A stretch of 64,000 nt of DNA. Origin: Lophium mytilinum (lineage: Eukaryota). Location of the stretch: contig MU004197.1 in NCBI GenBank assembly GCA_010093605.1, positions 1,488,707-1,552,706 of the forward strand, in the 5' to 3' direction. The number at the start of each line of letters is the position of its first letter. Position 1 is the first letter of the stretch. The notes under the pieces are model-generated. The model was given only the letters and a program-made list of their open reading frames with translations, ran no database searches and was not told the origin of the DNA. Shown one piece after another: positions 11,650 through 56,266 of this stretch. Position numbers and translations under genes: made by a program.

Positions 11650-11870
11650 TATTATAGCTATAACGCGACCCTTATTATAATATATTTCTATTATAGGTAA
11701 TAGCGTTATATAGCCTCTATTACGTGCCACCGTTATCTAACTACGCTTAGCGCCAGCCTTACCTACCTCTCGGCCGGCGCTCCGCGCCCTACTCTCTCTT
11801 CTTATAGCTACTTTATTATATACTTAATACTATCTAGTTTTCTATTATAATTCTATATTATACTATAATA
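11650..11870 (+). repeat. 3' LTR
   Basis: Copy of 3591-3811, preceded by the purine tract at ~11638-11646 and followed by GTAAT. Confidence 0.95.
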
Positions 11871-30519: not shown

Positions 30520-31369
30520 TGCGTAAGAACGCTGCTCCAAGGTTTGATGAGAGTAGCGGAATGTAATAATGTCGGAAGATAAGAGGGCGGTGGAAGGTTG
30601 TGGTGCAATATCTAAACAACTGTGTGGACGGTGGTGTGTGGGGTGGGCATCCAAGTAGTTGTGTGATGTAGTTGAAAGGTTCAGGGTTTCCCGCAGAAGA
30701 GCTAACTTTATATACACCTGCCAGGTCGAGAGAATTCACTCTCCGGGAGTGGCACGTTTTGTCCGTGATGAAAGTCGCAGTCGCGCCAGGGCGGGTTTAC
30801 TGTTTACTACGTCGTTTTCTTACAAAGCTCTAGGCGCCATTTTGCGGAGGTGAATTCAAGGCGTATAGTACTCGTAGAAAGCACGTTGCTTTATCAATTC
30901 TCCCCTATCACTCTCAATTAGATCACGTACGGGAAGATATGTTGTTCATATACGCATTCATTCAATCTAGTCCATAAGCGAGTCGCTCTTCGGCGACATC
31001 CAAGGTATCGGTACTCGACTTCAGGGGACGAAACCCAAACCCATAGTTCATGCCATACGCCAAAACTCCTGTAATGATTCCCTCGCAGCCATTCTATAGG
31101 ATCTGAAAAAATAAGAAGCAAACGAAATCAAACAAACATCTGCCCATACTACTCCTCTCGTGACAGGAGTAAAAGACGCAAGTTAAGGAGCAAACTGCAA
31201 ATGTTGTCTGCGTGCCAGTGACAAGATGAAGTCTCATGGTTATATCACGCCGCGTCGATACCCCAATACCGCCCGAAGACTAACGGCGCTGAGGCTTACT
31301 TACCAACAAACATTGGTATAACATAGTCATGCTTTTGCGGACTGATACCCCACACCAAGGGTGCTGCAG

Positions 31370-33469
31370 TCACAGGTGCCGCTGCGAAGAAGGTACTGCG
31401 ACGGGTGCAGCAATTGGCGCTGTGATGATGGTGCTCCTTTCGAACCCGATGGGGACACGGTATGGGCTACCAAAGGCGCTGACTTGAACCCGTCCATTTG
31501 CTCGTTGCTTGATCCGCTCTGCTTTTGAGGTCTGGCTACCACGAGAGCTGGTAAATGTGGACACGATGGGTTGACGGTTGCGTGCCCGGCCAAGATTGAT
31601 AGCATAGCTGCTCATTTGATAGGCAGTCTCGAGCCTCTCTACCGACCATGCCTCATCGGTGCGGGATGGTAGTTTTGGAACCATAGGAAGCTCCGAGCGG
31701 TCCGGAGGGTAGGTATCATACCGAGGGGGAAAGGCAGGTGGAGCTGAAGACGGAGATAGAGGAGGAGATGGAGGAGGAGCGGGAACAGGAGAGCAAGGAG
31801 CAGATGGCATGGACATGGCGTCGATATACGCGTTCGCGTCATAGAGCTGATCATGCCCAGGCAGCCTGGGGCGGACATGTTCTGCCTCAGCTTGCGCTGC
31901 CTCGCGACGCTCCTTTTCGGAGGCCTCTTCGTCCAGCTTCTCAAAGTGTTCCCTGATAATGTCGGGGACGTCCAGACCTTCAACAATCGGGTTGCGCCAC
32001 TGCCAGAATTGCAAGAGCAACTCGTTTTGCTCCATGATGCCGTTGCGTTCTTTCTGGGTCAATGGAGTCGCTGGACGCATGGGGCCAGTGTATGGGGCGT
32101 CACCTGTCGTCAAGACTTGCACACGGCCGTACTTGGCGACCGGCAGGCAATTTTCGACGGTGTAGCCGATTGGGAGATTGTCATAATTCTCGGTCTCCAA
32201 AAGCTGAACCACCTTCGGTTTCGGAATGACTGGCTCTTGATCTCGGCGCAAGCATTGAACTAAATCCCAATGTGCTCCGGTCGTACGCATGACCTCTGCA
32301 TGGTTGGAGACAACAAGGTTCTCGTTCTCGACCTGAAGGGTAGAGATTTGTTGTCGAAGCTGAGAAATCTCAAGATCTTTCTCGTCGATTTCTTGCTGCA
32401 TAACCGATGTCGCCTTATCATCGCTGATGGGTACACCAGCCAATGCCAGATCTGCACGATCCTTCTGCAACTTGTGTAGGCCCATGAACATCTGATTAGA
32501 CTTCCGAAGGCGTGCGTTCTCCTCGTCCTTCTCCTTCCGGAGCTTCGTCAAATCCTCTTCGAGGCCGCAGATCTCGTTTTGAACGTCTTCAAGTTCATCA
32601 CACTTGGCATTGAAGTGCCCCGCGCTCATGGTGAGTTGATCTTGCAGGTCGGAAATTTGCAGTGAGAATTCCTGGACCTGCCCTCGAAGTATAGCGAGTT
32701 CATTATCTTCCTCGTGCATCTTCTCTTGCATATGACCAATATGCGTGGTGCTGATGACCGCGTGCTCCTCATGCTCGCCCAATGTCTTCTTCAGTACCTC
32801 GAGTTGCTCATGAAGGAGCTGGACCGCTCCGTCCAGCTCGAAGATGTACCACATTGGCACGTCCGCAGGTGCTGAATGGTGGACGTTGCGAGCATGTTGA
32901 TGGTGGCTTTGTTGGTTGTCTGGTGGTGAATGTCCAGATCCGACGCCAGGGTCATGAGGTCGGCCCTGGTGGTTCGTGGGTACGTAGCCACGAACACGAG
33001 GATATGGCGGAGGGATGGCGACGGCCTCGTACTGGGGCTCGAGGAATAGAGATACAGACGAGGCCGACGACGGAGCGCACTGAACCGAGGACGAATTGGA
33101 ATCGGTCGCCACCGGGGAGGATCCGGTAGAGGATTGGATATAGATCGTATAGTTCGCCCCGTTCAAGATTGGCTCTAGGTCTGGATGATTGTCAGCGGAA
33201 GCGCGATCTGCACGATTATGAGGCGACCTACACTTCCTAGCTTCTTCGGCCACGGACTCTTTGTACATCTTTGCAGTGGCTTGGACGGCCGCGGCGGAGA
33301 GACCGCTATCACCTCCTATCGTTGGGTGATGCTGGCGCTGGCGCTGACGACCTCCTACAAGCTGTGAGACAAAGCGGCAATCAATGTTTCGTCCACGAGT
33401 TGACTTACTGAAGGCATCTGCAACGGGCTGGGAAGCCGCACGGCGATCAGCAGCATGGGAACGCGACAT
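31370..33469 (-). CDS. Array gene B: orphan, N-terminal helix motif + coiled coil + Pro-rich tail
   Basis: 699-aa ORF; predicted 51-nt intron 33181-33231 (GTAGGT, GCTGAC, CAG); shares ELxGxVQ, AGxxNA and EQNELLL with A. Confidence 0.8.
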   Translation of the reverse strand: MSRSHAADRRAASQPVADAFSKSTRGRNIDCRFVSQLVGGRQRQRQHHPTIGGDSGLSAAAVQATAKMYKESVAEEARKCRSPHNRADRASADNHPDLEPILNGANYTIYIQSSTGSSPVATDSNSSSVQCAPSSASSVSLFLEPQYEAVAIPPPYPRVRGYVPTNHQGRPHDPGVGSGHSPPDNQQSHHQHARNVHHSAPADVPMWYIFELDGAVQLLHEQLEVLKKTLGEHEEHAVISTTHIGHMQEKMHEEDNELAILRGQVQEFSLQISDLQDQLTMSAGHFNAKCDELEDVQNEICGLEEDLTKLRKEKDEENARLRKSNQMFMGLHKLQKDRADLALAGVPISDDKATSVMQQEIDEKDLEISQLRQQISTLQVENENLVVSNHAEVMRTTGAHWDLVQCLRRDQEPVIPKPKVVQLLETENYDNLPIGYTVENCLPVAKYGRVQVLTTGDAPYTGPMRPATPLTQKERNGIMEQNELLLQFWQWRNPIVEGLDVPDIIREHFEKLDEEASEKERREAAQAEAEHVRPRLPGHDQLYDANAYIDAMSMPSAPCSPVPAPPPSPPLSPSSAPPAFPPRYDTYPPDRSELPMVPKLPSRTDEAWSVERLETAYQMSSYAINLGRARNRQPIVSTFTSSRGSQTSKAERIKQRANGRVQVSAFGSPYRVPIGFERSTIITAPIAAPVAVPSSQRHL

Positions 33470-35216
33470 CTTGACGTGAGCTATTCTGCGGGTTGGTAGT
33501 GCTGCGATCTAAAATGCTGGAAGGATGAGGTGTTGGGGTTGGTGATGACTGTGTTGGGATACACAAACAACAGTGGGTGGTTGAAGTGGTTGTGAGTGTG
33601 ATGGAGCCTCGAAGTCCTGCCTCGGGCGTGCGAAATATATTTCCTGCCAGCCCGAGTGAATCCACCTTTGCTGATGATTGTCAAGCGTTTCACGTGATGG
33701 AATACCGGCCCTCTGTCCTCACATACGCAACATTGTTCAAGGATATGATGGGAATTGTTTAGATATATCCCCAAAGTGGCTCGAATATACAGCCATAATT
33801 GTTCAGGCATGATGGACGATCTGTCCAGCGTCCGTATTATGTTACCTTAGCGGGCAGATTCTTTGGACGACTCCCTCTGATACTATACTGTTAAACTTCT
33901 TACTCTCAGTCTAAGACATCTTCTGGGCTCCATAATCCACGCTCAGCGTGACGGTAGGTACTTTTACATGCTTTTGCGACTGTCCAAGCCCCAATTGATA
34001 CATCTAATGTATAGATTAAGATGATTGAGTTCAAGTAAGATTAAGTAGTGATGTTGCCTTCGTGTGAACAGGTGTCATGCACTACCATGACTGAACAATG
34101 AAAGTCCTACTGCGCCTGCATCTCTCAAAACTGTTTATCTACGTATCTTTCCATATCACAAACTTATGATACATTGTGTGAATTATTGGCAACCCAAGTG
34201 TCGTGATGTGGAGTATAAACGTATCACTTTGAGACTCAATCTGTAGTGGAGCAGGCCAGCGCCCACAAAGGACTGCAAGCGTACTTGACGAGATCAGAAA
34301 AGGATAGACAGGCTGCAGCGATTGTTCTGTGTGAATTGCATCAAGCTGTCTACTAAGTAGATTAAAAAGAGCAAAGGTAAAAGAAGAGCGAAGGCAAAAT
34401 AAGGACGAAGACGGACAGGACATCCATCAATCTGCGTAACAGAGCGTAAATCAAGGCATACTTGCTTCTAACCATGTGCTAAGCCCGCGCATTCATACGA
34501 GTTTGGGCATCAAATAGGTAACTGTTTTAATGATTGTCTTTCCTAATGCTACCAGCTACTGTATGTATGTAGTATAAACGCCCTGAGAATCGCCGGCCTC
34601 TATGTTGCAAGAGTAACGTTCGCCATACGTGCCGGAAATCTTAGCGTCAACCATGTTACTAACAGCGTCAAAAGTTACTATAGCTACTGCCCCTGGATAC
34701 TTTGCAGGGATCGTGCACGTGATGTATACATTTGCTGTAAGAACCCGTTCCAGCAATAGATCAAGCGAATGGTAGGCCTGCCTGGGGTTTCTCCTTAGTG
34801 TATGTAGGTCGGCCAGATTCTTTTAAAGGGTCGTCAGATCTTATCGTCGTAGTTCATGCATCACGTGACTATTAATATCACACCTGTTTGATTATGATTA
34901 TCAACCTGTCCTTAGGTTTTGGGGCTATAGCATAGAGCCTCTCTTAAGTTTAAAAATAACTCAACGTTTGAAACTGTAAAGCACGAGGAAACCAGCGTGC
35001 CGAAGTTATCCGGTAGATGAACAATGAGTCATTGTCAAAATAATTTAGGTCTAGTGGTTCCCGCGGTTGGGATAGGTTCGCTCAACACTTTATTAATGGG
35101 GGCCAAGTCAGCTTAGTCAGATGCTAATCTGGACGTACTTATAGCCAGCCAGTTACTCACTTCTCAAAGTCTCATTCATGAAACGCTTCTAACACTACCG
35201 AAACTACTCTATAAAA

Positions 35217-35752
35217 ATGGCTGTCGGCGGCTGTTTCTGCGGGCACGTTCGAGTCGAATATAATGGTCAACCTCTGACATCGGCTAGTAAACCCCGGGAT
35301 TCAGTGCTTCGGTGAACTTACCTAATTTGATTTTCCTTCAGGTACTCTGCCACTGTCACGATTGTCGTAAGCTTACCGGGTCACCCTACACGTACAACTT
35401 CGTCGTCAAAACCGCAGATCTAAAGATCTCCGGAAGTCCGAAAGAAGTGCCAAAAACAGCGGACAGTGGAAATCCTATCAAGAACTATTTCTGTCCTGAC
35501 TGTGGTTAGTATTACCAGATTGAACTTGAGAAGGAAGTTTTGACGAAATTGCTAGGCACGCCGCTTTTTGGACACAAGATCAAATCTGACGGAGAACCTG
35601 ACGATACTACGGTCGTCCGAGCAGGAATATTTGATGACGACGGGATTTTGAATGAACGGAAACCTGAGGCAGAGATTTACACTGATAGACGACTGGAGTG
35701 GTTAAGTCCCGTCGAGGGGGCTGCGCAAATTATCGGTTATCCGCAAACTTGA
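35217..35752 (+). CDS. GFA / Mss4-like zinc-binding protein
   Basis: GGCFCGHVR, LCHCHDCRK, YFCPDCGTPLF, PEAEIYT..RLEW; two introns, the first apparently GC-AG (35283-35341). Confidence 0.88.
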
Positions 35753-36501
35753 CTTAGTGATTGAGTTTGGCACTTGGCGGCATGTCGTTTGGGCTACTGT
35801 TGCATAACATTGAAGACGCGAAGGTGTGATATATCAGGAAGCATGATTGCTCCTGTGATCTGTGAGTTGGAAGGGGCCGAATGGGAGCATGGGAGAAGCG
35901 TGTGTGCATTAGTTTGGTGTTGTTAGTGCACAGAGTCATAGGTTACCGTTTGCCAGCGTTTACTCAGCGGTCTCGAGGCAACATCCCCCGGTGTTTGCTC
36001 TATGTCGAAGAAGTTCAACCTACACTAGATCGATTGTTGATTTCATTCATTCAATTAATTAGCTCTTTTAATCCATTGACCGAGAGAGATATCTCCCTTC
36101 GACTCCAGGATCCAGGACCTGATTGGCAAAAAATCCTAGCGGACGGCAATATATGACCGTAGTTACCTGGAGGTTGTTGCATGAGTTCTGGTTCCTAGAT
36201 CTGTATCGTGTTTCCTAGAAGTCACGTTAGACACTCGTTTCTCAATCACGTTATAAAAGGACGAAGTTAAACGTCTCATGTCATATGACAAATTTGATTA
36301 TCTAGCTACTCGCAAGAGAAAAGAAGGGTATCATAAAGCGATGAAGCCGCCAATCCGCAATCGAGGCCTCTATCGCGCTGGAACAATTCGCCTGAACAAT
36401 GCCGCTCGCACACATTCTACTCGTAGTATAGTAGAACAACAGGAAAAGAAAGAAAAGGGATCGTTCGCTAATCGTGAAAAAACATCATTCGCGCATTAAA
36501 C

Positions 36502-38867
36502 TCAGAAGAAACGAGATTTCGGCGGTAGGGGGCCCGGAGGACTCGCCATGCCCGGTGCAGTAGGTGGGGCCATAGGTGCTTGTGCAAATAGCGAGCTGAT
36601 TGGAAGTCCCGAGAATCCCAATCCGTTCACCCGTCCGCATCCAGGGGTAGCACCTTGTCCACCGACAGTAGGTGCCGGACGGCTAGTGCCAGTGACGCCG
36701 TTGTCCAAGGACCCTGGGTGTCCGCCGGAGATAGAGACTGGGCGCATTGTTCCAGTTGCCGGACCAAGAGAATCGAAAGAAAAGGTGTTGTATTGCGCAG
36801 GGCGGTGGGTGGCCCCGAAGTCCCCGGAGCAGTCCCCGTCTGGGAGAGTATCTGCAAGAAGGTCATTAGCCACAGGGCGTCCAGCCCCGAATCCAATGGC
36901 CGCTGCGCGAGGGGCACCAAATGGGTTGAAAGCGGCCTGGGAGCGATAGTTGTGTGTAATCGCGGTGCGGACGTTTCCAAAAGCAGTGGGAGGCTCAACA
37001 TCCGGCACTGCGTCTGCGTTGAGATTGGCAAGTGCAAATTGTTGTTGGTGAAGGTTGCCCGAGGGGAAGGCGAGGGCTGGTGCGGGCATTTGGATCGCGG
37101 CGTGATGTGTGGCATGATCGGTGGTAAGGGTGTTAGGGATACTGCCGGGAGCGATGATGTCGGCGACAACTTCGCTATACTGTGACTGGGACTCAGCCCC
37201 ATACGGGAGGCGGTCCTGATGCTCCTGCTGGGTGATGTTGTGCTGGATAGCGTCGGGAGACGTGATAGGAACGGGCAGGTCGGAGACTTTCATGGTGTCC
37301 TGAATAGCATCACGAACCTCATTCGTGGTATCTTCTTCTGGATCAGCACCTGCAACAGCGTCCTGTTTCGGCTTAGCATCCTCTCCTGGCTCAGCTTTTG
37401 CAGCCGCAGCCTCCTCTTGCGTGACGATGATAGAGTCGGTGATAGAGCTAACTGCGCTCTCGGTCAGTTCATGCTCCGATTCCTGACGTTCGCCGTCCCT
37501 CAGTCGCTTAGCAAGGGTAGGGGTATTATGGTAGGTGAAGTCGTCCCCAGGGGCGGGACGGGGTGCGACGTTCCAGATCACCACAGGATCCTCTTTTCCG
37601 GCATGATCTCGCTGACGAAGCTGCTCCCACAGCTCCACGATCTGCTCTTGTTGCTTCGCTTTCTCCTGATTCAGCTCCGCGAGTTGTTCATTCTGTTCAT
37701 TGACTTGCTGCCGAAGCTCGCGCATTTCCACGCGGCCCTCCACCAGCTGTTGACGATACCTCGTCACCACCTTCACGACGCCTTCCTTCTTCTCCGAGAG
37801 TGTCAGCTCACCCACGGATAGCTCGGTGTCGTCGTCCTGATTGTAGCAGCAGTCTTTGATCTGGTCCTCCAATTCGTCGACCAAGTCCTGCAGGTCGTTA
37901 ACGTTTTGGATGTTGGCGTTAGCCAGCTTCAGGTTTTTGTCTGCTTTCTTCTTCAGCTTGCCACACTTGGCCTCCAGCGCCGGGCAACGTGGGCACATGG
38001 GCGGCACCGGCTCTTCCTCATTCTTTGAGACGGATTGATGGCCGTCTCGGATAGGGGTCTGAGACTCGTAGCTGCGTTCCTTGTCGGGTGATGGTGGTGC
38101 AATAACAATGGTCTTGGTCTCGGGTTTGTCCTTGGTTCCAGGGCAGACTTCGTTGACGACATGAATAGTGTCCGTAGTATTGACTACGGACGAGCGCGGG
38201 TTCTCGTTGCCTATACCATCATCGATTAGAGAGACCAGGGTGAGCTCATGTTGATTGTATTGCGTACCCTGTGGTAGACCAGACTGAGGGGTGTCCGGAT
38301 CCAAGACGCGTATGCGCTCTCCCTCCTCTGGTGAATGATCGTAAGAAGGAGGTGCAGTCGCTGACGACGGGGGCTTTGGGGAGCTTGTGCCAGAGCTAGG
38401 CTGAGGAGTGGACTCCGTGGTGACTGTAGCGGATGCGCCGAGAATGGAAAGGTATTCGGACACGTCTATGTTTCCTGTTAGATCAAGTTGAACTGTAGTA
38501 GGGGATGGGGCTTACGTTTGGAGACTTCTTTCTTCACGCATTCTTCTACCAGGGAGCTCTGCTTCAATACTTCCTCCCTCACGAACTTATCTACCAAGAA
38601 ACCAATGCCCTGGCGCGCGGCAGGAGTGAAAATATCGGCAGAGCTCTGTTGATTTTCTGCTCGTTGGGCCGCTGCGATACGCGCCTCCATGACTTCCGAC
38701 ATAATGCTCACTACCTCTTGCGTATGGTATGGATGGGACGTAAGCAATTCCCGGCCCAACATCTTGGCTTTGCGTTGTCGAGGAGGGGGGACGTTCATAT
38801 TCTGCGACTTTGCGATGTCGTGCGGGAAATCTAGTGGGATAGAAGAAGAGAAGCTAGAAGAAGACAT
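36502..38867 (-). CDS. Array gene C: orphan, coiled coil + disordered Gly/Pro-rich tail
   Basis: ORFs 38478-38906 and 36502-38463 are joined by a 50-nt intron 38466-38515 (GTAAGC, CTAAC, TAG). Post-intron HVSEYLSILGAS resembles A's NVRLALQAMGAS. Confidence 0.75.
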
Positions 38868-39698
38868 GCTAACAAAGTGGGAGGTGATGAGGGTGGATAG
38901 GTACACCAGAGATGGTGGTGGTGTTGCCAGGTGTGGTGTCTAGGTGTGATGAATCCTCGAGGTTCTGCGTTCGGGGCGAGCTTTTTACGCCCGTCAAATT
39001 GGCTGGATTCACTGTCTTGACAGCCTCCACGCGTATCACGTGTGGTGTGCCTGTGTGCCTGGTCCTTTGGCGGCGCCTGCTGCCGGGCGTCGGGCGCCGG
39101 GCGAGTTATAATCGATACAGTGTGTATTCACTTATTCAATGTGCATACCTTTGGGCATCAAACTCTCGATGTCACTCTACGCGTTAGTTATGGCTTTGGT
39201 GGTATATTGGGGACTAAGGAGGTTAGACGACGTGGAATGTGCATAGAACTTGAAACGACGGGTCTATAATGAGAGAATCAAATATACAATCTCTACCAAA
39301 CGGAACACATTCATATTTGATGTTGTCGTAAGTTCTGGACTATCGGGGCACATTCTCCTGCTCTCCAAGTTTGCAACACGCCTACAAGCTTCCACACAAT
39401 GTCAACATCGCTAATGGCTCGGTTCGATACAGCTAATCCTGAGTTCTGACCTTCAGATCATATTCCATATATTCCGGTGGATCAGGGCCCCTCAAACATC
39501 ACTGGCCAGATGGCAAGAGAGCAAACACTTCTATCACAATTCAAAGGGTATAGAATTGGGACCTGAATACGTATATACGTCGGCCTGAGCCCTCATACTA
39601 CCGATGCAGCTGAACCGTTTTGAATATGGACTAATGATGAAGAAGCGCTACAATTGATCAACGAACTGATCAAAACGTATGAAGAGAGCGCATAATAT

Positions 39699-41969
39699 CT
39701 AGAGTTCATCCTCATCGCTCTTATCTTCTGTCTCTTCGTCAGACTCTTCGCCATGGCTCTCATACTCCGTCTCTCCGGCAGACTCTTCATCATCGCTCTC
39801 AAATTCTGTCTCTTGGGCAGACTCTTTACCATCGCCCTCTTCTTCCACTTGTTCCTCCTCCAGCTCTTCATTGTTCGCCTCCATGTGCTCCTCCGACGGC
39901 GTCTCAGTACTTCCCTTCACTTCGGGCCCGTCGTAGGCTTTGTAGCCCGTCGGTTTATATCCCTTGTAGATGGCTGGATTGACAATCTTGTGCCTCGCTT
40001 TATCCATTCCCGAAAGGATTATGTCGAGCAATTTAGAGATCTCTTCTGCCGAATACTCTTCATTCGATCCGTAGCCCCCAGAGACTATTTCACGCGCAAT
40101 GTTCTCTTTGTTGCTGAGCAAGAGTCGCAGGCGTTCCTGCAGACGTTCTTGCTCTCTCGGCGTTGAGTCCTTCACGTCCTCAGCATCCCTGAACCAGCCG
40201 ATTCCACCACGGAGGGCCAATGGGTCATCGAAAGGAGCAGGATCAGCATCTGGATCCGGGTCGTTGTCCGGATCATGCGATGGAGGGGAGGGGAATTCGC
40301 GGCCGAATTGGATGAACGAAGACACCTCCTGAGCAACCTCCTCATCAAGCCCCTTCAGGTAATCGACTGTGTCCCGCTCATCGATTTCCTCCTCTAACTT
40401 GTCTTGCATGTAGTTAGATTCCGGACCGAGCTCAACCTTAGCAACGTCGAGGAAGCCTTGGAAGTCTTCCAAGTACCCCTTCCAGCGCTCGGCCTCCTTC
40501 GTCTTTTCTTCAAGTTGCTCATTCCTATCCGCCAACATTGCCCGGAATAAGCGAACCTCGGAACGGATGCGCCTCAACGCGGTCTTCGCCTCCGCCCGCT
40601 CTTCTAGGAACAGCGCGGTTTGGGCGTTTGCCTCATGGATAATGTGATGTTTCTCGTGATCCATCTTCTGGTGGTCTTTAGCGAGGAAGTCGCACGCCTT
40701 GTCGCATTCGCGAAGCTCTTTCTTGAGCTCATCGTTCTCCTTCTTCAGCTGATCTTTCTCCTTCCTCAGTCGAGTGTAGTGACCTCTCAGCTCGCGTAGC
40801 TCGACGGGCGCTCCCGGCCTTGGCAACTTTGCGAAGCTTGCGCGGAGTGCGTCTTCCTGCTCTTCCTCAATCGCCTTCGCTTGCAGTATCTCGTCCACTT
40901 TGGCTTTAGCTGCCAGCGCATCAGCCGTCTCTTTCCTGGCCGTGATGAGTTCCTCTTGAAGAGCGTCATATTTGGCTTTTGTGACTAGCGCCTCGCGAAG
41001 GACATCGGAGTTGTCGCAGGCGAGAGGAGTACTAGCGGTGATGGAAGATGGAGGGGTATCGATACTAGGTCGAGGGCGAACATTGCCAGTATCTAGACGT
41101 CCAGCAGTATTAGTAATGAAAAACGAGACTTGCGGTCTGCTATGGGCTAATGCTTACCGATTATAGCGGAGTCCACAGCCTTACCAAGAGTGAACGGAGA
41201 CGCTGACATCGAGGCGCCCTGCTTTTGTGAAACCGAGCTGCATGGGCCCAGGCTCGACGTGTTTGAGGACGTATCGCTTCCATTTCCCGGTGAAGTCGGG
41301 CGAGACTGTACAGAAGACTGACTAGCCGCAGAAAATGGGGGAAGCCACTGATGGTCGCGATAGTCGGAGGGTATATTAGGGGGTGTATTCGAGGGAGTGG
41401 CTACGCTTCCACGCAACTGGCGAAGCAGTCGGACTTCAAGTGCCTCGGGGGGTGAGGGGGTGTTCTTCCTGAGTTCGCGACGAAGCCGCGCCTCCAGAGA
41501 CTCTCCTAGCTCTGTTCAGTCCCATAGATGTTGACAATGATTGCGTGGAACACTTACCAATGTGCAGCATTGCCTTCAGCTGCTCAGCAGGATGATCTGA
41601 TACAGCTGATGGCGGCTGAGCTTTAGTCCGGTAAGCTGGCGGCTCATCCATGGGGCGGCGCATGGCCTGGGTCCCTTGGAAAGGAGGCATCGATACGTTT
41701 GGGGCTGAGGATGTTGCTGGCGCGTCCCCAAATTGAAGACGAGTTCCAGAGGTAGTGGTAGACGGATGAATAGCCTCGATGGCGTCGTGGAGGTTGAGAC
41801 CGCTTGGAAAGTGACGCATCAAGAAGTTGTCGTCTACGATAGCTGCTGACCGGAAGGTAGGCTGGAGCATGGATGCTGGAGGAGGACGAGCAGCCTGAGC
41901 GGCGCGATGCTCCGCCGCCATCGCAGCCGCTGCGTTGAACCGGGGGTACGCGGGAGCAATAAATGACAT
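39699..41969 (-). CDS. Array gene D: orphan, coiled coil + acidic repeat tail
   Basis: Introns at ~41512-41557 and ~41094-41157 (alternative donor possible) join ORFs 41436-41999, 41147-41416 and 39699-40898; the tail has ~13-aa E/D/S repeats. Confidence 0.7.
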
Positions 41970-43605
41970 CGAGACACTAATATGGATATGTACTAACAAG
42001 TGAGCAACACGATTACTCAGGATGTGAGTGGTGGTTGTATGTTGAGGTTCTCAGGTGGGGGGTGTCGATGAAGATGAAAGTTCTGGCTCTTCCGGTCGGC
42101 GCGGGGAGTTTATGTCTGGTTTCCCGAATCTGTTCACCACGTGACTTTACGGGCACGCTAAGCTAGAGAGCTGGCGTAAATGCCCAGGCGGACCCCGGTT
42201 GCCAAGCGACTCCACGTGACGTCACGACATCGGGAACAATATCGCTCCGAACACCCTATACTACTCCCTTTCCTCCTCCCAGTTGTGGTTTCTCAAGTGG
42301 CCCGATATTTTAAAAAAAGTGGTGTGAGGGACTCAGCTGTGCAAGATCGAGGCTAGTTCCAAGATGTCTTTACTTTCGTCTGCTTCGTCTTCGGATCTCC
42401 ACGTGGAACGTTGTATACTGGATCTTATCGGAATTTCTTTTGTCGTATATAAGTTTTGATCAAAGATAACATTCTAGTTAGCACAAGTCCTCCATGTGGC
42501 TCATCGTGCGTTGTTTGTGAATGCTACTGCTGAAATGGCCCAGACATGACGATAATTGAATCCGAGTCATGATGGGAATCTCTGTGTTGTTTGAGCGTTA
42601 GCTCTCATATTGGCGGAATATATTCAGCATCATCGCCACGGATTGTGCCCCCAGTATCATTTTCCATAACGGCAGATCGCAAGACTTACGCGCCAGTCGC
42701 CAGATTCCCATCCTGGTACGGGTTCCTGGCCGTTGCTGATATATAATAGACACCTCACCACTGTACATATTTCGTCTTGTCGAGCTAGAGGTAAAAGCTT
42801 TCAATCTCCGTGATTGATTGACGGGACATATCGGACCGGTGTTAGCTATAGCGTCGTAAGAGACAAGGGTTTCTGGGTTAGGACTGGGATCTGAGCCCTG
42901 GGGTGTTTGACGGCTTGGTAGAAGTTGGTTCGCAAGCTAAAAGCTTTCTTTGATTAGACAGGGCTGGCATTCGGTTCAAGCTAATAGGTGGCTGTAGAAC
43001 CCTCGCACTGTCAGGTTTGCTACCTTGGGTGTAGAAAATGAAAACTACTGCACGTTTTCAGTGAATGGGTAAGCTACTTGTAGGTAAAGAGCTTAATCTG
43101 GGCCTCACTCGCGACATAGAAAGGGGCTGACACGTGATCAGATGCTTGTTCGGGCAAGTCTTCGCAGGGTGCAAAAGGTGTGGAAGACGGAGAGGGTTGC
43201 GCCTAAGTTGTAGCCAGTTTAACTGAAACCTTACTTCCCATGGTTAAACCGCCATGGCAATTTTGGCCGCAACCTCTCTGCCTTCCACATCTTTTGCGCA
43301 CAGCCAAGACTTTCCCGAACAAGTAATTGGTTCCAATTCCACCACTGGTAGTATGCCTCAATGCCTCTACTCTAAGCAATCATATCTTGTTCTCGGGCAT
43401 ATCTATGAATATTGCCATGCACCTTTCATGCGCGCCGCAAGGTACCAGCAAACCGCACCCATGGTCCTTCCCTACACCACATTGGTACGCGGCTAGGATT
43501 GCTAGATTGATATGATGGTTTTGTGTATGCTCTTCACAGGCACTTGTTCAGCAGGTCATAGCCGATGTTATCATCCTCCTCATAGTTTTCAGAGTCTTCA
43601 TCAGG

Positions 43606-44789
43606 CTATGAGTCGGACGAATCATACTCTTTGTCCTCATCGTAGTACCTGTCCACGCTCCATCTCCGGCATAGCGTCGATCTGTGATAAACCTCCCTCT
43701 CGGGTTTGCCATCGAATCCGATCGTCAGGCGATCAGCCATGCTTTGTCCTTCGGAAGGTAGAGGCGCTTGCTCTTTGTTGACCGGACTATCCACAGAAAG
43801 GCTTCGCATATCAGACTGTGAACTCTTGTTTTCGTCGAGCTTGGTGTGTTCAGATAGGAGAGTATGGGAAGTATCCTTGACCGCGTCAATCTCCTGGGGC
43901 TCGGTTCCGAAGAGTGTTTCGGAATGGGGTTGCTGTTGAGGAAGATGTGCCGCAGAATGAGCCCTGGATGATTGTTTGATTGCAGCGGTCACAATATCGT
44001 TAAGAGTTTCCTCGGCATCCATCTCCTTATTCAAGGCGTCCGCGAGATCTCGCTCAGCTCCATCGTGCTGGCGCATAGTCTCTTGGACACCATCAGCTGA
44101 TGTGGAGGGCAGTGGTTGGAACTTCAAGTTAACAGCATGGAGGTCAATTACTGCATGAGCAGGCGCGCGATCGAGCGAGTTCGCCTGCGCCTTCATTGGA
44201 GCGAAAGAGCAAGCTCTTGGGTTGAGAAGTGAAGTCGAAGCTTTGGGTCGTACACTCTCAGCGTGGATATCGTCGTTGGTCGAATGATTCATGCCAGGCA
44301 TGAAGGGACCGTCGAGATGGACTATACATAAGTGAATCAGTATATGATAATAGCGTGATATTTAGTATGCTACTTACGGTCTTTCGGCGGAAGCTTCAAG
44401 TCCTTGTCCGTCTTCGCCAAGAATTCAGCTATGGATAGCTGTCTGAGGCTTGAAGACGACGGAGTAGCTTCAGCGGCGCTGTCCTGAGAGGCTGATTCCG
44501 CTAGTGCTGATGTCGACGTGGACGAAGGACGCGTGGAAGGGGTTGACTCAGCGCATCGGCCGCGAGCGCGATAGTCAGTCTGGTGAATGGAAGAAGCAGA
44601 TGTAGCATCTTCGTCTTCTTCAGCAACTTGAATCAACGCTACATCAAGAATGATCAGCTTGGGGGGAGGAAACGTCAGCCTAGAGGCGAAGTTACCTTGG
44701 TAGGCTAGACTTTCGATCGCCTTCTGGAATCGACCACTCGTGTATCGAACGAGTGCCGGAGGGAGCTTCTCGCACGTGGTGGGCGGCAT
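43606..44789 (-). CDS. Array gene E: orphan, N-terminal helix motif + disordered region (possibly C-terminally truncated)
   Basis: Predicted introns 44639-44695 (57 nt) and ~44322-44376 give one frame; it ends at a TAG followed by more acidic coding-like sequence. Confidence 0.65.
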
Positions 44790-46299: not shown

Positions 46300-49200
46300 T
46301 TAATTTGCCTTCGCTCTCCTAGCAGCATTGTGCGAGCTCTGATTATCACACAGCACCACCGTGTGCTTTGCAGCTTCCTTTCTACGCTGCTGCACCGCTG
46401 CAATATGGGCAGTGTCTGACTTCGCCATGTCGACTCCCCAGTTGCTCCAAGTACTGTTCGGAGCAAGTCGCTCGGTGAGGGGTTTGCGGACAGTGGTGCG
46501 TCCGAGTGCTTCTGTCTTCGAGTAGTCGGAAGTTGTGAGGCAGGCTGGCGCGGCTCCACGCTGGGGTTTCGTGGTGGGTCGATTCATAGATGTGTTTGTG
46601 GTGTTTGCGCTCTTGCCCGAGCCTGGGGATTTCCGAAGTGGTGGTAGGCCTTGAGTGCCCTTGAAACCTGGAATAGAGGTTGAAACAGGGCGGGGTTTCC
46701 GGAAAGGGAGGGAGGAAGCCACCAAGCTCTGCTTTTTAGGTAGATCAGAGGTCGAAATAGACGCCTTAGCTTTGTGATTCGCAGGCGGAATATAGGTCTG
46801 AACAGTGGGACGAGCAGCCCTAGAACCAGTCTCAGCAGCCTTAGGCTGGGAGGTAAGAACTTTGGACTGGACAACCAGCTTCGGGGTAGACCTATCAGCA
46901 GTAGAAGAGGCAAGCTTGATGCCATACTTGGCACACTGATTATCGTAACGGCCTTTCTTGGGGCGTGCGGACTTCTTCTGTGTGAACTTCTTAGGCTGCG
47001 ACTTCACAACGGTAGCAGGTGCGGCAACGGGGATTGGCTTCTCTGAAGCCTTGGTGGAAGCGGGCGCTGATTTTGGCTCGCGAAGGTGAGGCGGGATGAG
47101 CCTGCGGGAAACTTGCTCAGAGGGAGTGAGAATCGGCTCACGCGACTTCTCTCCAGCTACGGAAGAGACGACTGGAGTAGAAGAAGAACTGCTGACGGAA
47201 TGGTTCCAGTCAGTGCTCTTCCCACTCTCCGAAGTGCTGTCATCAATGACGCTGTCGTGTTCTGAAGCCTCCTCGCACTTTTCAACAAGACGATGAGAGA
47301 ACTTCAGATTTTCGGGGACTTCGTTTGGCTGGAGTTTGGTATTCGACCCTTCCGGTACGGGCCTCAGAGAGCGTTGAAGCCATTGAAGATACCCCTCCGA
47401 GGAGACGGTGGCGGAGAGCCTCGCGAGGGGTAGAGAGGGTACCTCGTCATTAGGAGGATGAGATTCGCAAACAGGAGATATTGCCGCTGCAGGCAAGTCG
47501 ATGATTTCTTCTGGATCCTCTTCAAACGTCGGCTTATCGTCCCACAAAGTCATCGCACCTGGAGGGATGGCGTCCTCCACATCCTCCCACCAGTCAAAAC
47601 TGATGTATTTACGTAGTTCAAGCCTCTCAACATCCTCGGAGGCCACCACCATTTCGCGTGCTTGAACGGGTGCCACCAATTCTTCGTCGTCTTGCGCATC
47701 GCTAATGATGGATCCGCGGCCTGCTGGCTTTGAAAATCCACGTTTGTAAAAGTCTTCAACAGCTTTCCGGACTCCCCGACAGAGATCCTCTGGGATATCA
47801 TCAAGCAGGTCGCCGAGGAAATTATCGACTTTGGCGGTGAGAGAATAAACGACGGGGACTTTGGCTGAAGAGGAGACCTTGACGATTCCTTCTCCGTGGT
47901 CGAAGAACTCGGGAGTCGAGGCGGGGTGTAGAGTCTCGATGACTGAGACCGTGTCGATTCCGCACGCGGTGGGTTTAGAGCTGACTGGGTCATTTTTGGC
48001 TAACATATGACCAACGGAAGCCTCAAAGGCGGCCCCGTAGACATTCTCGAACGGCAAGGTCGTGGTGTCCTCTTGGCGAAGCGGTTCGTTTTTGGCTAAC
48101 ATTCGACCAATGGAAGCCTCGAAGGCGACCCCGTAGACATTCTCGAGAGGTAAGGTCGTAATCTGCTCTTGGCGAACCGGTCCATTTCTGGACAACATGT
48201 GGATCACGGAGTCCTTAAAGGCTGATCCGGAGAGGTTCTCAAACGGTAGGGATGTCAATGTATTGACCCGAACAGTGTTCAGGTTGGGCAGAGGATCTGT
48301 TATGCATGAGCATTACCATCAGAGAATTTGTGTCTATGTGACTTACCGAGCTGCACGATATACTCTTGAGTATTCTCTTCGACGGTGAGGTCAGTCTTGT
48401 TAGGCTGATGTGTGACAGCCTTTTTTTCCTCTTCGAGAGGGCCAAGTGGCTGGGAGCTCTCCTCGTGTTCCGTCTTCTCCTCAATCTTCGTCTCATGGAG
48501 ACCGAGATCGCAGACAACTTGTTTAAGGACGAGGTCGTCCTGGAGAGTCCCTATATGACCAGCCTCCCCATGAAGGTCCTCCTCGGTGTCGCCTCGAGAA
48601 AGCACGCAGACGGCAACATTTTGAGCCTCAGAGAGGCTGTCCTGGGATGCTTCGGTGGATACCACCATGGTGGGCTCGAGATCGTCATCATTCTCGACCG
48701 GGACGGCAGCTTTGGATTCTGCATAGTGTGTCAGTGCGATAGAGGAGAATACATAGTTTGCTAGCTTACCTTCACGAGCGTTGATCACATCCAGGGTCTC
48801 CACGGTTGTAATAGAGTCTTCATCTGATTCGTCCATTGTTAATGCACTGTACTGGACACCCAGTCCGAGGCTAAGCACTTACCTTCAGTGGGCGTAGAGG
48901 AGCGCTCTGTAGTATCCTCGGAGGATATTTCCCGGGCCAAGACGACGACTCGTTCTACGCACGAAGAACGGGAATCTTTAGAGCGAGTGATCTCCACTGG
49001 CACAAACTGTACCACTCCATGGAGAATTTCGGTCTCAGCTTTGGTTGCAGAAAGCTGCGCACGAGCAGTCTGGCTGCCAGTTTGCTCGACCTTGACCATG
49101 TCCGTCTGGATAGAAGTCTGCTTTGAGCGATCTCGAACATTGAGAGGCGTCGACTTCTCACGACACTTGGCCTTGGTCATGGAACGAAGAACATGCGCAA

Positions 49201-49528
49201 AAGATGCTAAGAGGAGGTTAGTTTTAGTGAATAGAAGTGAGTGAGAGGGATTCTTACAACTCTGAGAGAGCTTCTCAACAGCCTTATCATATTCTCTCAT
49301 GGTGTATGCCATCAATTCGGATGGCAAATGACCTGGGACTAGTAAGCTTCTACATCATGAAGACTGGTATGATTGGTGAAAGGCATTACCCTTCTTCATG
49401 GTCGAATCCTTGTGTTTCTTGCCAGGCTTGGGGTTGGAACGGTCTTTGGAGGAGGTAGGATTTGAAGAAGCCTCCACAATCATCTTGACAGGGGGAGTGA
49501 TAGGTGAGCGAGTGGAAGAAGTGGACAT
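46300..49528 (-). CDS. Array gene F: large disordered orphan with helix motif, 32-aa repeats, IPPHLR/YIPP motifs and basic tail
   Basis: Five GT-AG introns (including 49207-49257) join ORFs 48839-49327, 48300-48878 and 46300-48258 with a first exon MSTSSTR starting at 49528. Confidence 0.75.
47985..48260 (-). repeat. Three 96-bp (32-aa) coding tandem repeats in gene F
   Basis: TSLPFENLSGSAFKDSVIHMLSRNGPVRQEQI / TTLPLENVYGVAFEASIGRMLAKNEPLRQEDT / TTLPFENVYGAAFEASVGHMLAKNDPV. Confidence 0.92.
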
Positions 49529-51039
49529 GGTGGTTCAAGAGAAATTTGATATGAGACAGTCGACAATTCGGTTAGGAATTCCTGGCAGGAGACAGATATC
49601 AGTTTGCAGGAGGATCAAAATCTCCACGTCGGATGTTGAAAAGAAGCTGAGCTCGAGGAGAGGGAAGGGGTTTTGTATGCAAAGAGAGATCGGTGCACGG
49701 GCAAGTACCGTAGATGGTACCGCTCACGACCGTAGTAGGTACCGCCAGCGACCGCCAGCGACCGTAGATTGGACCGCAGAGTATGGAACGGCGAGCTCTC
49801 ATTGGTGGGGTACGAACAAGGAGGAGTGAAAGGTGGATTTGATAGTTGTTGCGGTACTTTACACGGTGAGATTCTTCAAAGTCGTGTGATAATGTTGATT
49901 ATTACCACTAACTTACAACAGGGAAACTAACTATGATGATTGTAGAAATCATGACTTTGCGTGGACATTGTCATCAACGCTGTCCGTCAGCTTATAAATG
50001 TATCATTCACTCGGTTCACCCTTGGTTGGAAAATATGTTTGACATCAAGGGGCTAGCAAATGTGAGCTTTGGTAGCGTCACGAGTTTGTCGGTTTGGGAC
50101 GTGTAATGAAAATTACAAGAAGTCGCAAGAAGAGGATACGCTGTGTGGAAATGATGTTTCGTAGCAAAGTCGGTAGCTTGTAACTCCTGGTTTTACAGCC
50201 GCTACATACATGATAGCGAGCGTCTTGATTTTAGACTTGCTGTACAGCAAGCTGAAATCTCTGACTAGCCATGTATCTAATAATTATCTCGTATCGTATG
50301 AGTGATTCTATACAGAGCCCGGGGAAAGATATTTTTCAACAAGATAGAATTGCACCAGCACAGCTATTTATAAAACAAACTATTGTTAACATAAGGCAAG
50401 GGAGGCAGTCATCAGGAGTAACTATATGTAGTGCAAAACCATAGGACGCATGAAGAAGCAAGAGTAGGGGCAGGCATCTATCAACCACTCTACTCTATAT
50501 ATACACGACGGGACAAACAGGCTCCCTAAAAGCAAACAATTTAGGTTTGCAAATGGAAAAGGTTTATGAGGAAGACTTATTGCCATATGAAAGCTAGCAC
50601 AGTGGTAAAATTCTAATGCATCCTCGTCTGTGTCTACGAAATCAAAACTTCACTCGTCTTCTCTTCCGCTTGTATCACTCAACTATGTTTCCATTCTACA
50701 GATATCGAAGTACTAACTTGCTGTCGCTTAATCCACATACGTAGAGAATAGACCGCGTGTCCCATTTGCTCTCTCTTTACCACCCCGATCTTCCTTGATA
50801 TACGTCAATCTGCTCGATCATACGCCACGAAGTATCATGAACATCCAAAGAATTGATTTGGAGTCATAGTTCTGCATATTGAAGACAAAGTTTGGTGAGA
50901 TTTGAGTACACCGATAATCATACGTTAATAATGCTACCTAAGGGCGTGAACAGCTACTAGAAAACAGGGACGCAGAACATTCCGTATTAAAGAGCCCCAT
51001 GAACAGGCAAAAGGAGCAGGCGAAGAAAGGCCAGTCGAT

Positions 51040-53415
51040 TCAGTCAGTCCACTCTGCGTCCTTGGTGTACCGAGTGTTGATGTCGTACTCAACCTTCTGC
51101 GGAATATACGAGGCCATCTTGGCTCTCACTTCTGCATCCTCACTCTGGAAGGCGCTCAACCAAGCAGCCCCGCGTTCTGTCTGCTGTCGCGGCCTGGCCT
51201 TTTTCGAGGCCGCCATCCTGTCTGCTTGGACCTTCGTCTGCTGAGCAGCCTTCTTGGTCATAGGGGCGGACTTCGTAGCAGCGACTGTCTTAGTCGCAGT
51301 AACTGTCTTCATAGTAGCGACGGGGCTCTTGTGGTGCGAAGCGGCACCAATGCGAGGACCCTTTGAATACTGGTGAGTGATGGGCTTGGTTGGGCAGTCT
51401 CGGGTCATATGACCCTTCTCCTCACACTGGAAGCATTTGCCCTCCTTCATCAGGCGAGCACGGCGCTCTTGGGACTGCTTAGGGTTCATTCGAGGACAGT
51501 TAACGTGACCTAGAGTGATCTTCGACGCCGAACCTGCGGGACGCGTCGTCAGGCTCGTTGACGGGGCGAGGGCTTCGTAGTCACGTACTGGTGGTGGAGC
51601 CGAGTCTGCCTCTGGGGTGGGCTTTGATGCGGGAGGAGAGATGGGATTGCCTTTCGTGACAACTGCCTCGGAAGCGGGCTCTAGAGGCAATACTGCAACC
51701 GGAGTCTTGACTTCGAGCGTCCTTGGTCGTACCCTCAAATTCGGAGGGATGTACATGGAGGAGGTCGGGCGCTTCTTGATGGGCTTCGAAGTGTACAAAG
51801 TAGCCAAGCTCTTCGTGTTCGTACCTTCGTCGACCGGGCTTAGATCTTTGGCCTCTACCGTTCCTTCATTGCTGGCATCTTCATGGAGAAGTGCTTCTTT
51901 ACCTTCAATGGAATTTTCCTCCACGACTGTCATATTGTAGTCAGAGATCTCCTGCTTAATCTTGGCAGAGACCGTCTCGATGGACTCTTGAGGAGCGTCT
52001 AGAGTTGAGGTCAAGATATCATGTACAGGAGTAGTTCGAACTCCTTTCTCGCCTTTGAGTTTAGCCTCTAAGTGGAGAGTAAGCAGTGGATCTACTGGAG
52101 GGGTAGAAGAAATGGCCTTTGTGGCTTTGGTGTCAAGAGACTGCTCGACTAGGGGGGACGACGGAATGATAGGCAAAATAGCTGCAGTGGTAGCCTCGCC
52201 TTCATTGGTAATCCTCTGTTCGGATTCGACCTCGAGAAGAGTGGCAAGAGAGCCGATCGGTGTTTTGACGCGAACAGGTTGAGAGACCGTCAAGATTAAT
52301 GCGGGAGTAGACGAGAGAGTAGAGATGACAATATTGTCCTCATGTAGGGAAACTTCCTCCGACGCAGAATCAGACTCTGGGGTGGATGTGTCCGCAAATT
52401 TCGGAGAATGAGTGGCGTCATTCGTAGCCTCATGGTCGCGGACCTGCGCAGTGTCATCTTGGCTGCTGAGCATTGAGTCAGCTAGCCGTGTTGTAGTAGC
52501 AGCGCATTGCTCAATTGGGGACAAGAGAAGTGGCTCGTCCTGCAGAACCACATCCTCGCCACATGAGACATCAATCCGCTCGTCTCGTCCGCTTTCAGAG
52601 CTTTTGATCAAGTTGCGTAAAACCATAATTGCGCGGTCCATTTCGTCCAGAGCATCGATTTGCCTGCGGACGACCAAGGCTGTGTCGTTAGAAGCGCTTT
52701 CCAGCCCTCTCCCACTCCCGGCATTGTCGTTGTCTAGTACATTTTGGTAGTATTTGATCTCTGCCATCTGCTCGCAGAACTTGGCGAAGCTGTGTTCGAG
52801 GCTGGCGGCCTTCGTCGTTTCGGATGATCCCAAATCGACTTTCTCAGTTTCCGGTGCTGCGATTTGGACCTCGACTGGTTGTCTATTGTGGCAATCCTTC
52901 GACATAGGAGGGTTTGCCGGAGATTGAGACATAGGTGCGGAAGTAGGCGAAGTCTCCTCCAGTACTGCAAATTGGCGAATTAGTACACTTCTCTGAAAAT
53001 GATCTCAGTTAAAAAGCTTACCAACTGCTACATCTTTATTCTCAACTATAGGCCGATTGGGTCTACCCATGCTGAGTAGAAGCGACAATGGAGACATTGA
53101 ACGAGGCAAGCGGGTCGCCTCCGGAGAGCTGGGCTCGGAAGACTTCGAAGACGTCTTCGAATTAGAGCTGAGACGGGACTTCGAAGAACCACGCGAAGAG
53201 TTCGGCTGAGAATCTTGCTTCTCAGCAGCTTCAGCAGCCTTAGATAGTAGATCTAGACACGCATTAGCAACAATGTCGAGTGAATCGAAAAGATAACAAG
53301 CGGTACCTTTCTTGGCTTTCTTGTCTTGCGCGCGCTGTAGACTGTTCCTAGTGATTAAAATAAGGGAAGTTGGGAGTCGAGAAATAGACGTTGGTGGACG
53401 GTGCGGAGAAGGCAT
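51040..53415 (-). CDS. Array gene G: disordered orphan with helix motif, YIPPNLR and CCHC zinc knuckle
   Basis: Start MPSPHRPP at 53415; introns 53253-53306 (54 nt) and ~52965-53021; CFQCEEKGHMTRDC at 51394-51435. Confidence 0.8.
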
Positions 53416-54152
53416 TGTGGCGAACAATGCAGAGCAAAAGGGTGTTGACAGATGGAAAGATACACTGGGCAGTTATAGGACACGCCAAAGACTTTTGGAA
53501 GCTCAGGGTGGTGGGGTGGGGTAAAAACTGTAGTGCAGTGTGTGTGTGAGGAAGGAATGTCGGTCGACGGTTCGATGAGGCATTTTGTAAATAGTAGCTC
53601 TGAGATCTTAGGGTCATGTGACCTAATTGGGCAGGTAGTGAATCGGTTGCCTTGCAGTTGTAGAAGGTCAACACGGTGGGAAGTAAACCACCATGTGACC
53701 ATTCATGGAGCTGATACCTAGGGTACTCCGCACAGTGCTATCTAGCCAGCAAGAAATGGGTCTAAGTACATCAATTCTTCGCTATCAGGTCTTATGCATT
53801 CTAAATACAGTGGAAAGGCTGATGAGCTGCGAATTAGACTCCCTCTTATCTATCCATGTACCGGCTAGCCAGTGCACTCCTTACAGTGGTATGAAGCGCA
53901 TAAGAGCAGAGCACAAGTAGTGAGTTATCCGCACGCCCAAATCTATGACCTAGTAATGTTTACAGAACCACCTCTTTGCAGATGGGAACACAGTGTATCG
54001 TGAGATTTTGTACATACATTGACGCTAAAGAAGCTAATATTAGTCTCTAAGCTGTTAGACAGAGTGTGAAGTAGAAAACACGAGGTTACCCTGGGGCCCT
54101 GTTGAACCGATCCCTTAAAACAACCACAACACAAAAGATGAAGAAAAAAGCC

Positions 54153-56266
54153 TTACTCAACCTTTCCACGGACCCAACCCATAAGGGTAGCACCATCAGT
54201 TCCGCCAGAAGAATACGGCGACTCGTCGTCCGAATCATCATCCACATAATCCTCGCCACATCGCTGAGCGTACCGTCTATCCTCAGCCTTCGCCTGGGCA
54301 GTCTTCTCCCTGACTACACCCAAACCAGCACCCTTAGGGCGAGTGTTGACCTCAATAGGGCCGAGAATACCTTCGCCTTCTTTGCCGAGGCCTTCGCCCT
54401 CTTTGTAGCCCATTTTCGCCATCAACTTCATTGTAAAAGCGCTCATTGCAGGTTTTTCCTCGATAGGTTTAGCTTTGGGTGGGAGGCGTTCGGACGAAGC
54501 GTGCATGCTCCGCGACAGGCCTTTGAAACCGGGCTGTGAACCTTCATTGGATACAACAGATTTGGAGACGCCCTTCAGAGTAAGCGGCGGAGATGGTGAT
54601 ATCCGCTTTTCGTTGCCGTACCTCAGATGAGGCGGAACACTAGCCTTCACAGCCTCAGAAGCTTCGTAAATCTTGGAAGGTGCTGGGGCAAACGCCGGCT
54701 TCCACGTCTGCGCTGGGCGTTGGAAGCTAGAAGAGGTGATCGTATCGTTTTGGCTGGTAGGAATTGGAGGCGAAGTAGGTTCAGAGGTGGTGTCCTGCGA
54801 GCAAAGCTCGGGCAGAGACAGCTGTTTTGGCGTTGTGGAAGCAATCTTCTTGGCCCAAGGCCTCAGATGCGGGGGTAAATACCGCGTGTCATCAAGCACC
54901 GCATTGAGCCGGGCGGTAGAGCGCTTGATCTCAGTCTTATAATCCACGCTATTGTCCGTGGTCTCAACGTCGAATCCACGTTCCGCCGTCACTGATCGGT
55001 TGGTAAAGCTATCGCTAGGCTGCGAGAGGTTTGTACCGTCGTGCAAGGTCGTAGAGAAGTCATCGGAGGAAACACTAGGAGTGGTGGTGTCCTCTGCCTG
55101 GCTATCCATGATTTCAGATGCTTGAGCAGAGATCTTGCCGATATGTTCCAGGTGCTCGACGTCAATAGAGATGGTGTCTTCCTGTTCAGCGCATTCGTGA
55201 TCAATGGCTAATTTGGATATCTCGATGTCGACACGGATATGTTCCGGCTGAAACCCCTCGCCTTCGACAGGCGTGGTCATTTCAGCCAGATTAGGGAGAG
55301 GATTTGACGGAAGTTCGGAGACTGCCGAAGAGTCATCAGTCGCTGTAAGAGTGTGAATTAGTACTAATGTACAAACCTGAAATCGGGGATACTGCTTACC
55401 CAATGCTGCAAGACGTTCGGAATCGGTCTTATTGTCGCTTTCAATATCCTCAGTAGAGGCCTGTTGGAGTGGCTCCTCGACCTTCGGTCTGTTTTCATCA
55501 TTGCCCTGCTGCGAACCAGAGTTCCTAGGGTAGATTGACCGCCCCGAGGAGAAAGATTGCTCCGAGGATGGCGTTGGAGAAGTTTCAGTTGGAGAAGTTT
55601 CAGTTGGAGAAGCTTCCGGCTCTTCTTCGTTAGTTGAGGATGATTCTCCTGCTTCCTCGTCATCGTCATCGGAAGCTTCAGCAAGCTGAAGAAGTGCTAC
55701 ATCGAGGATAGTTAGCACTGAAAATTTGGACGCAGGGTAGTCTGTTCCACCTTGCATGGCGATCTTATCGATGGCCTCGTCATAAGACTTCTGCACAAGC
55801 TTGACAAACTCTATCGGAAGGCCAACATCGCGACACAATATACCGAGGAGTGCCGAGGACGCGTCCTGCTCGCTTCCCTTTTCGAAAGCGGCAACAAGGA
55901 GAAGTACTGCGATCACAATGGTTAGAATAAATGATACAAAGGGGAGGCGACTGTACCTTTGATAAGAAGCCTCTCCACGGCTTTTTCGTAGGCCTTAGCC
56001 TGTGAACCAGCGGCAACGGGAGGGGCTCCGGCAGTCTGACGCATCATGCAGCGCTGAAACGTTGGATCTGCAATCTGTGAGCCCATGCGTAAGAGAAGCG
56101 CTTGTATTGACTAACTTTGAGAAAGATTCCACTTCGCAGAGAAGAAGCTAGTAGGGGAGTCCGGTAGGACGACGGACTCGCTTCGAGCAGCTGGCTCGAG
56201 CATATTGCCGAAGCGAATGGAGGCCAATCTGGCATCAACAACGCGCGAACTAGCAGAAAAGGGCAT
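54153..56266 (-). CDS. Array gene H: disordered orphan with two helix motifs, two PPHLR motifs and C-terminal G-patch
   Basis: Start MPFSASS at 56266; introns ~56068-56115, 55907-55956, 55697-55750 and ~55343-55399; G-patch KLMAKMGYKEGEGLGKEGEGILGPIEV..RPKGAGLG. Confidence 0.8.

Follow-up and report, generated by a model that had tools for sequence, protein, structure and literature searches.

Ded1-like YxPPHLR motifs recur in a tandem array of undescribed, mostly disordered proteins in Lophium mytilinum

Short proline-rich sequences resembling the N-terminal YxPPHLR motif of Ded1/DDX3 helicases recur in three adjacent genes, designated F, G and H, within a 64,000-nucleotide stretch of fungal DNA from Lophium mytilinum (assembly GCA_010093605.1, contig MU004197.1, positions 1,488,707 to 1,552,706), hereafter the window. 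This stretch lies on the contig designated C17 of a 43.4-Mb, 49-contig assembly, and the three genes belong to an array of eight co-oriented minus-strand genes, A to H, occupying positions 28180-56266. The recurrence is real and the motif is known, the proteins that carry it are undescribed, and any function read from their sequence is putative. The explanation preferred here, tentatively and with less than even confidence, is that the sites would represent an inherited and partly decaying motif, serving disordered scaffold proteins as a weak, redundant docking point for eIF4A or the translation-initiation machinery.

The initial annotation of the window had listed six such sites in genes A, F, G and H, and a six-frame scan recovered all of them on the minus strand, inside long reading frames, at the positions given in Table 1. 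Their proposed likeness to Ded1 and eIF3g holds in part. In the host genome, Ded1 carries YIPPHLR, eIF3g YVPPHLR and Sgd1/NOM1 YIPPSLR. The published SLiMPrints pattern for this motif is YxPPx[ILMVA][KR], which corresponds to the ELM entry LIG_eIF4E_2 and has significant human matches in DDX3X/Y, eIF3g, eIF2A, NOM1, TDRD3, CDV3 and ZC2HC1A (PMC3510515). Of the six sites, just two fit this pattern, namely H site 1 and the one in G; F site 1 and H site 2 are without the Tyr, and F site 2 and the A site without the ΦR end. A second sequence in gene A, YVPPQDY, fits the pattern no better than its YSPPHV. The known carriers of LIG_eIF4E_2 are deeply conserved core factors, whereas those of the array are lineage-restricted paralogs in which the motif is poorly kept in one relative.

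The sites are clustered. The window contains five matches to a DNA-level pattern for PP[HN][LF][RS], where dinucleotide shuffles give 0.41 and none of 100 reaches five; F, G and H account for four of these matches, all in frame, and the fifth (45222-45235) is intergenic, within a 63-codon frame. Genome-wide and in all frames, the same pattern yields 497 matches against 481 for the reversed control, and the motif is therefore not common as such. Across the 2374 codons of the adjacent genes F, G and H, four in-frame instances of PP[HN]LR were seen and about 0.014 were expected from the genome-wide rate, a large gap, although this hand calculation is post hoc, ignores proline richness and, the copies being paralogous, does not amount to a true p-value. 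A genome scan in any frame for YΦPPxΦ(R/S) returned 84 matches, and 67 for the reversed control. Eighteen of the 84 were picked by hand and read, comprising every match in which position 5 is His or Asn (nine) and nine others. Long or known coding frames contain six of the 18 (Ded1, eIF3g, Sgd1/NOM1, ornithine decarboxylase, G and H), and the remaining 12 fall in short or alternative frames, some of which may be short exons. Within the YΦPP[HN]Φ(R/S) subset, five of nine are in frame in such coding frames, namely those of Ded1, eIF3g, ornithine decarboxylase, G and H. As motif carriers, G and H keep select company, though chance in-frame matches do occur.

Table 1. Features of the array and of a dispersed family member (positions in the window unless another locus is named).
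Feature	Position	Strand	Description	Source
Genes A-D	28180..41969	minus	coiled coil and disordered tails	
A site	28669..28686	minus	YSPPHV then T, no basic residue	
Gene E	43533..44789	minus	shared N-terminal module, no PPHLR	
PAM2-like site in gene E	44198-44226	minus	LLNPRACSFAP	
Gene F	46300..49528	minus	986 residues, 6 exons, disordered	
F site 2	46774..46794	minus	YIPPANH, no LR	six-frame scan
F site 1	47080..47100	minus	LIPPHLR, no Tyr	six-frame scan
Gene G	51040..53415	minus	754 residues, 3 exons, mostly disordered, helices and CCHC knuckle	
G site	51733..51753	minus	YIPPNLR, residues 518-524, full pattern match	
Gene H	54153..56266	minus	634 residues, 5 exons (hand model)	
G-patch and next helix in H	54220..54445 (approximate limits)	minus		PF01585
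H site 2	54621..54641	minus	SVPPHLR, no Tyr	
H site 1	54861..54881	minus	YLPPHLR, full match to YxPPx[ILMVA][KR]	
Dispersed family member	G000:C22, L115:1000-3205	minus		

The proteins that carry these sites had initially been described as otherwise unalignable. This is correct for the surroundings of the motifs, since no protein or DNA similarity links the flanks of the sites across genes, but not for the proteins as a whole, whose N-terminal exon and intron can be aligned. Genes E, F, G, A and B and two units of H have in common a helix of the type LP..L......Y.KAVEK.., followed by a phase-1 intron; its GT donor occupies the same alignment column in all eight of the eight units compared. The module is clear in A and B, whose coiled coils are likewise related (BLASTP E 2e-12), weak in C, the weakest of the aligned units, and not shown in D. 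Reads gave no instance of splicing for these shared introns; the introns of F and G are in accord with database proteins, and the one in H unit 2 with a gap in its ortholog. The gene models of the array were built by hand, and those of F and G have the same lengths (986 and 754 residues) as database proteins P0003 and P0005, respectively. F, G and H are diverged paralogs and not independent carriers, and gene duplication is a possible source of the recurrence of the motif alongside convergent mimicry. The Arg codon AGG, a minor codon, is common to the G site and both H sites, which weakly suggests that they go back to a single copy. An origin of the motif DNA by capture from DED1 or eIF3g was also considered and is unsupported, no similarity extending beyond the seven codons.

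A dispersed member of the family, on the contig designated C22, has the same N-terminal start and intron, a coiled coil, a CCHC knuckle like that of G and a block in common with E (E 2e-10), and this mixture indicates that the array family shuffles modules. Within a few kb of this member there is an STE3 pheromone-receptor gene. Beyond the host genome the family is sparsely represented. In a protein search, F, whose database entry is labelled Lophium mytilinum, retrieved itself and a single ortholog, labelled Mytilinidion resinicola, among 7999 scored candidates, and residues 1-440 of H gave no match among 7998. A HMMER search with H returned 529 matches; among the 150 listed, the best-matching stretch reaches the G-patch region in 149 and lies outside it in one, P0008, whose accession is three numbers away from that of the F ortholog and whose contig equals that of the F ortholog in length. 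No family was found for the conserved blocks of F in Pfam, the ESM Atlas or a metagenome scan, the search for F relatives in two metagenome scans left none of 597 and none of 252 candidate stretches confirmed, the ESM Atlas offered nothing usable on F or on its C-terminal block, and a profile of the N-terminal helix had no PDB match better than E 0.65. The family has so far been found only in two related Dothideomycete genomes, and literature searches, with most subscription journals outside their scope, returned no publication on it.

The motif itself has been termed not well characterized (PMC8262696), and its direct partner is disputed. The segment, named as YVPPHLR in Ded1 (PMC11917139), contributes to eIF4A binding through Ded1 residues 21-27, with a larger effect for R27A than for Y21A, and full binding needs a second segment, 51-57, as well (PMC7343385). 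A DDX3X peptide did not bind yeast eIF4E directly in nuclear magnetic resonance experiments, and a DDX3X 38-44ala mutant lost co-purification with initiation factors (PMC11251518). As a partner, eIF4A is supported in yeast, and eIF4E was not bound in the resonance experiments; of the binding to eIF4F components given in the initial annotation, the share that concerns eIF4E is weak even in DDX3X itself. It is conceivable, though quite unlikely, that the site is selected for another partner or property altogether, such as a proline-motif reader of the SH3, WW or GYF type or self-association as a condensate sticker. The conserved core over the array copies, which is PP[HN]L and includes neither the Tyr nor the Arg, would fit either of these. 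YVPPHLR acts as a sticker in LAF-1, and phase-separation papers reportedly mention it. The unsettled identity of the direct binder of the DDX3X peptide (PMC11251518) likewise leaves room for another partner; the best-studied instances of the motif, by contrast, are translation factors (PMC3510515).

Several findings weigh against a selected docking motif. The F ortholog, P0004, is 42% identical to F, and the two sites read SLPPHLQ and YVLPALR in it, neither of which fits the pattern; the Arg of greatest weight in Ded1 (R27) is a Gln at the first. Two other parts of F, SFDWWED (~47570-47600) and the C-terminal ~90 residues (~46330-46600), are far better conserved than the motifs. The H ortholog P0008 (290 residues) aligns up to just before H site 1 and ends there without motif or G-patch, its end being the annotated one and the annotation possibly truncated. 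No ortholog was found for G, which retrieved only itself among 8000 scored candidates, and no PP[HN]LR is present in the C22 member. The match in ornithine decarboxylase, in frame by chance, lies inside its enzyme domain, and the 84 any-frame matches should by themselves yield some pair no more than 3.2 kb apart about 0.5 times (hand calculation). Moreover, binding of eIF2A to eIF4E does not require the motif (PMC3510515). Conservation in orthologs, proposed as a check in the initial annotation, half fails in this single relative, although PPHL is kept in the F ortholog amid a poorly matching stretch and stands out from its immediate flanks. At F site 2 the ortholog retains Y.xPA with LR, and both versions could derive from one full motif.

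In a neutral explanation, a proline-rich disordered ancestor would have had one PP[HN]LR by chance, which was duplicated and has been drifting since, the match to Ded1 being meaningless. Paralogy would account for the recurrence, the two orthologs found have the motif in degraded form or not at all, there is no genome-wide enrichment over the reversed control in either scan, and ornithine decarboxylase provides a chance in-frame match. The persistence of four to seven residues in three genes without flank similarity is nevertheless hard to obtain without selection, and the PPHL retained in the F ortholog and the further RNA-related modules in the same genes also speak against drift. Neutral descent is rated as rather unlikely, though as the most probable of the rival explanations.

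The clearest of these further modules is the G-patch of H (PF01585, E 1.1e-14, 54.5 bits against a cut-off of 22). Gene H combines two N-terminal helix modules, an acidic, Ser/Thr-rich disordered region, the two PPHLR sites and this C-terminal G-patch, and its residues 439-512 (the C-terminal ~75) are 66% identical to the G-patch region of the host SPP382/NTR1/TFIP11 gene (locus L002 on contig C12), which encodes a G-patch and a GCFC domain. The resemblance extends to the DNA level in a DNA alignment, and together with the protein identity it indicates that the G-patch and following helix of H were copied from this housekeeping gene. The copy is in frame, and by eye its DNA departs from that of SPP382 in the third position of many codons. 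H thereby shares a G-patch with Spp382/Ntr1/TFIP11, the Prp43/DHX15 cofactor, but in that protein GCFC follows the G-patch, whereas in H a Pfam search found no GCFC and the G-patch sits at the C-terminus of an unrelated disordered protein that ends ~50 residues after it. Contigs from sequencing run X3 are identical to H over 54040-55683, a span that takes in both sites, and skip a 57-base intron (55343-55399), showing that H is spliced; X3 is a single low-depth run, probably of RNA, whose contigs reach H but do not cover F or G, which carries no evidence on the expression of those two genes. P0008, furthermore, is without the stretches of two in-frame introns of the H model; its AlphaFold2 (AF2) model has a mean predicted local distance difference test score (pLDDT) of 47.6 and a single helix at 21-60, of low confidence.

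The combination of YLPPHLR, PPHLR and an in-frame, diverged Ntr1-type G-patch in H could suggest dedicated mimics or decoys, which would compete with Ded1 and eIF3g for their partner and, in H, tie up or retarget Prp43, reprogramming translation or ribonucleoprotein (RNP) remodelling in one developmental stage. The presence of several sites per protein and the activation of DEAH helicases by G-patches (PMC7132122) agree with such a role. The sites, however, are not conserved in the relative, no flanking sequence derives from Ded1 or eIF3g, and Ded1 itself needs a further segment, 51-57, for full eIF4A binding. This is considered the least probable of the explanations weighed. No helicase, RRM or MIF4G domain was matched by Pfam in the array proteins, no DEAD or Helicase_C match of the Ded1/DDX3 kind was found in the array frames or in P0003 and P0005, and none of the 43 DEAD matches of the genome falls in the window; the array proteins are not helicases of the Ded1 family, nor are they orthologs of TFIP11.

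Under the preferred reading of a weak, redundant docking motif, a tandem family of long standing, its proteins mostly disordered, would have diverged while gaining and swapping short modules, and a single ancestral YΦPPxLR would have spread through gene and intragenic duplication. The motif may then have been retained amid diverging flanks as a place where the translation-initiation machinery can dock, with eIF4A the most probable partner, as it is for Ded1 residues 21-27, and the proteins would serve as messenger RNP (mRNP) or granule scaffolds. Selection on such a site would be loose, and copies therefore decay, with the Tyr lost in F site 1 and H site 2, LR lost in F site 2, and the motif changed or lost in the relative. 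Disorder is predicted from models of F and G. The Atlas model of F has a mean pLDDT of 0.38, and the G site is modelled as coil with pLDDT below 50 over residues 491-556, placing it within a probably disordered stretch, although the AF2 model of G was computed from a single sequence, a weak basis.

A broader proposal, which we regard as unlikely, is that the array constitutes a lineage-specific adaptor toolkit, in which docking modules of RNA metabolism (YxPPHLR, G-patch, PAM2-like and CCHC) were shuffled onto a common N-terminal helix for a stage-specific mRNP or granule programme. If so, H would bridge DEAD-box (eIF4A) and DEAH-box (Prp43) helicases, and the PAM2-like site of E would lead to the poly(A)-binding protein. 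The sequence LLNPRACSFAP in E is PAM2-like. The corresponding pattern, chosen after the site had been seen, has one match against 0.02 expected. The full consensus was not found in the available portion of PMC4466420. The CCHC knuckle of G (PF00098, E 0.0014) falls short of the curated cut-off, and a retrotransposon Gag source for it was rejected as unsupported, since a search of the own genome instead turned up a multi-knuckle gene of cellular type and the family member on C22. An RNA-related role is compatible with both this knuckle and the Prp43-type G-patch of H.

Other observations concern the individual genes and their surroundings. In F, SFDWWED resembles DWAEEED at the start of the host eIF3g, and positions 47991-48198 hold an in-frame 96-base tandem duplication that is not in the ortholog, a recent internal duplication within the array family. 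Gene E has an in-frame TAG at 43606-43608 (minus strand) within its acidic tail, followed by 24 further open codons; sequencing run X1 has no alternative letter there, and the codon represents either a recent nonsense change or readthrough. The second exon of D reads open. An inverted repeat between genes (~43090-43325, 73.5% over 185 bases), the arms of which recur on several other contigs, is possibly a small non-autonomous DNA element. The array is flanked on one side by an ARMT1-like gene (PF01937) and on the other by a UBC-like gene and a proteasome AAA subunit, AAA being assigned by Pfam match and the names UBC and Rpt2 by reading of the open reading frames. Elsewhere in the window, the adjacent and related frames 18776-19753 and 21189-22094 (minus strand) both hold an MLIHALYTG block and form a second small tandem family, the former with a weak BTB match (E 0.05). 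An AT-rich block at 1-13000, with 26-33% GC over 1-12000 and without an ATG frame of 150 codons, looks like repeats mutated by repeat-induced point mutation (RIP). Rfam gave no match anywhere in the window.

Lineage-specific tandem arrays and chimeric new genes form a general class, with which the array shares co-oriented paralogs, a shared intron, fast divergence and captured housekeeping pieces; unlike in that class at large, the pieces captured or retained here point repeatedly to RNA metabolism. The array shows new fungal genes assembled from pieces of housekeeping genes. Natural carriers of the YxPPxLR motif that have no helicase core, some of them in variants lacking Tyr or Arg, would help to define the direct partner of the motif, and, should the motif prove neutral, the array would still represent an undescribed and narrowly distributed gene family.

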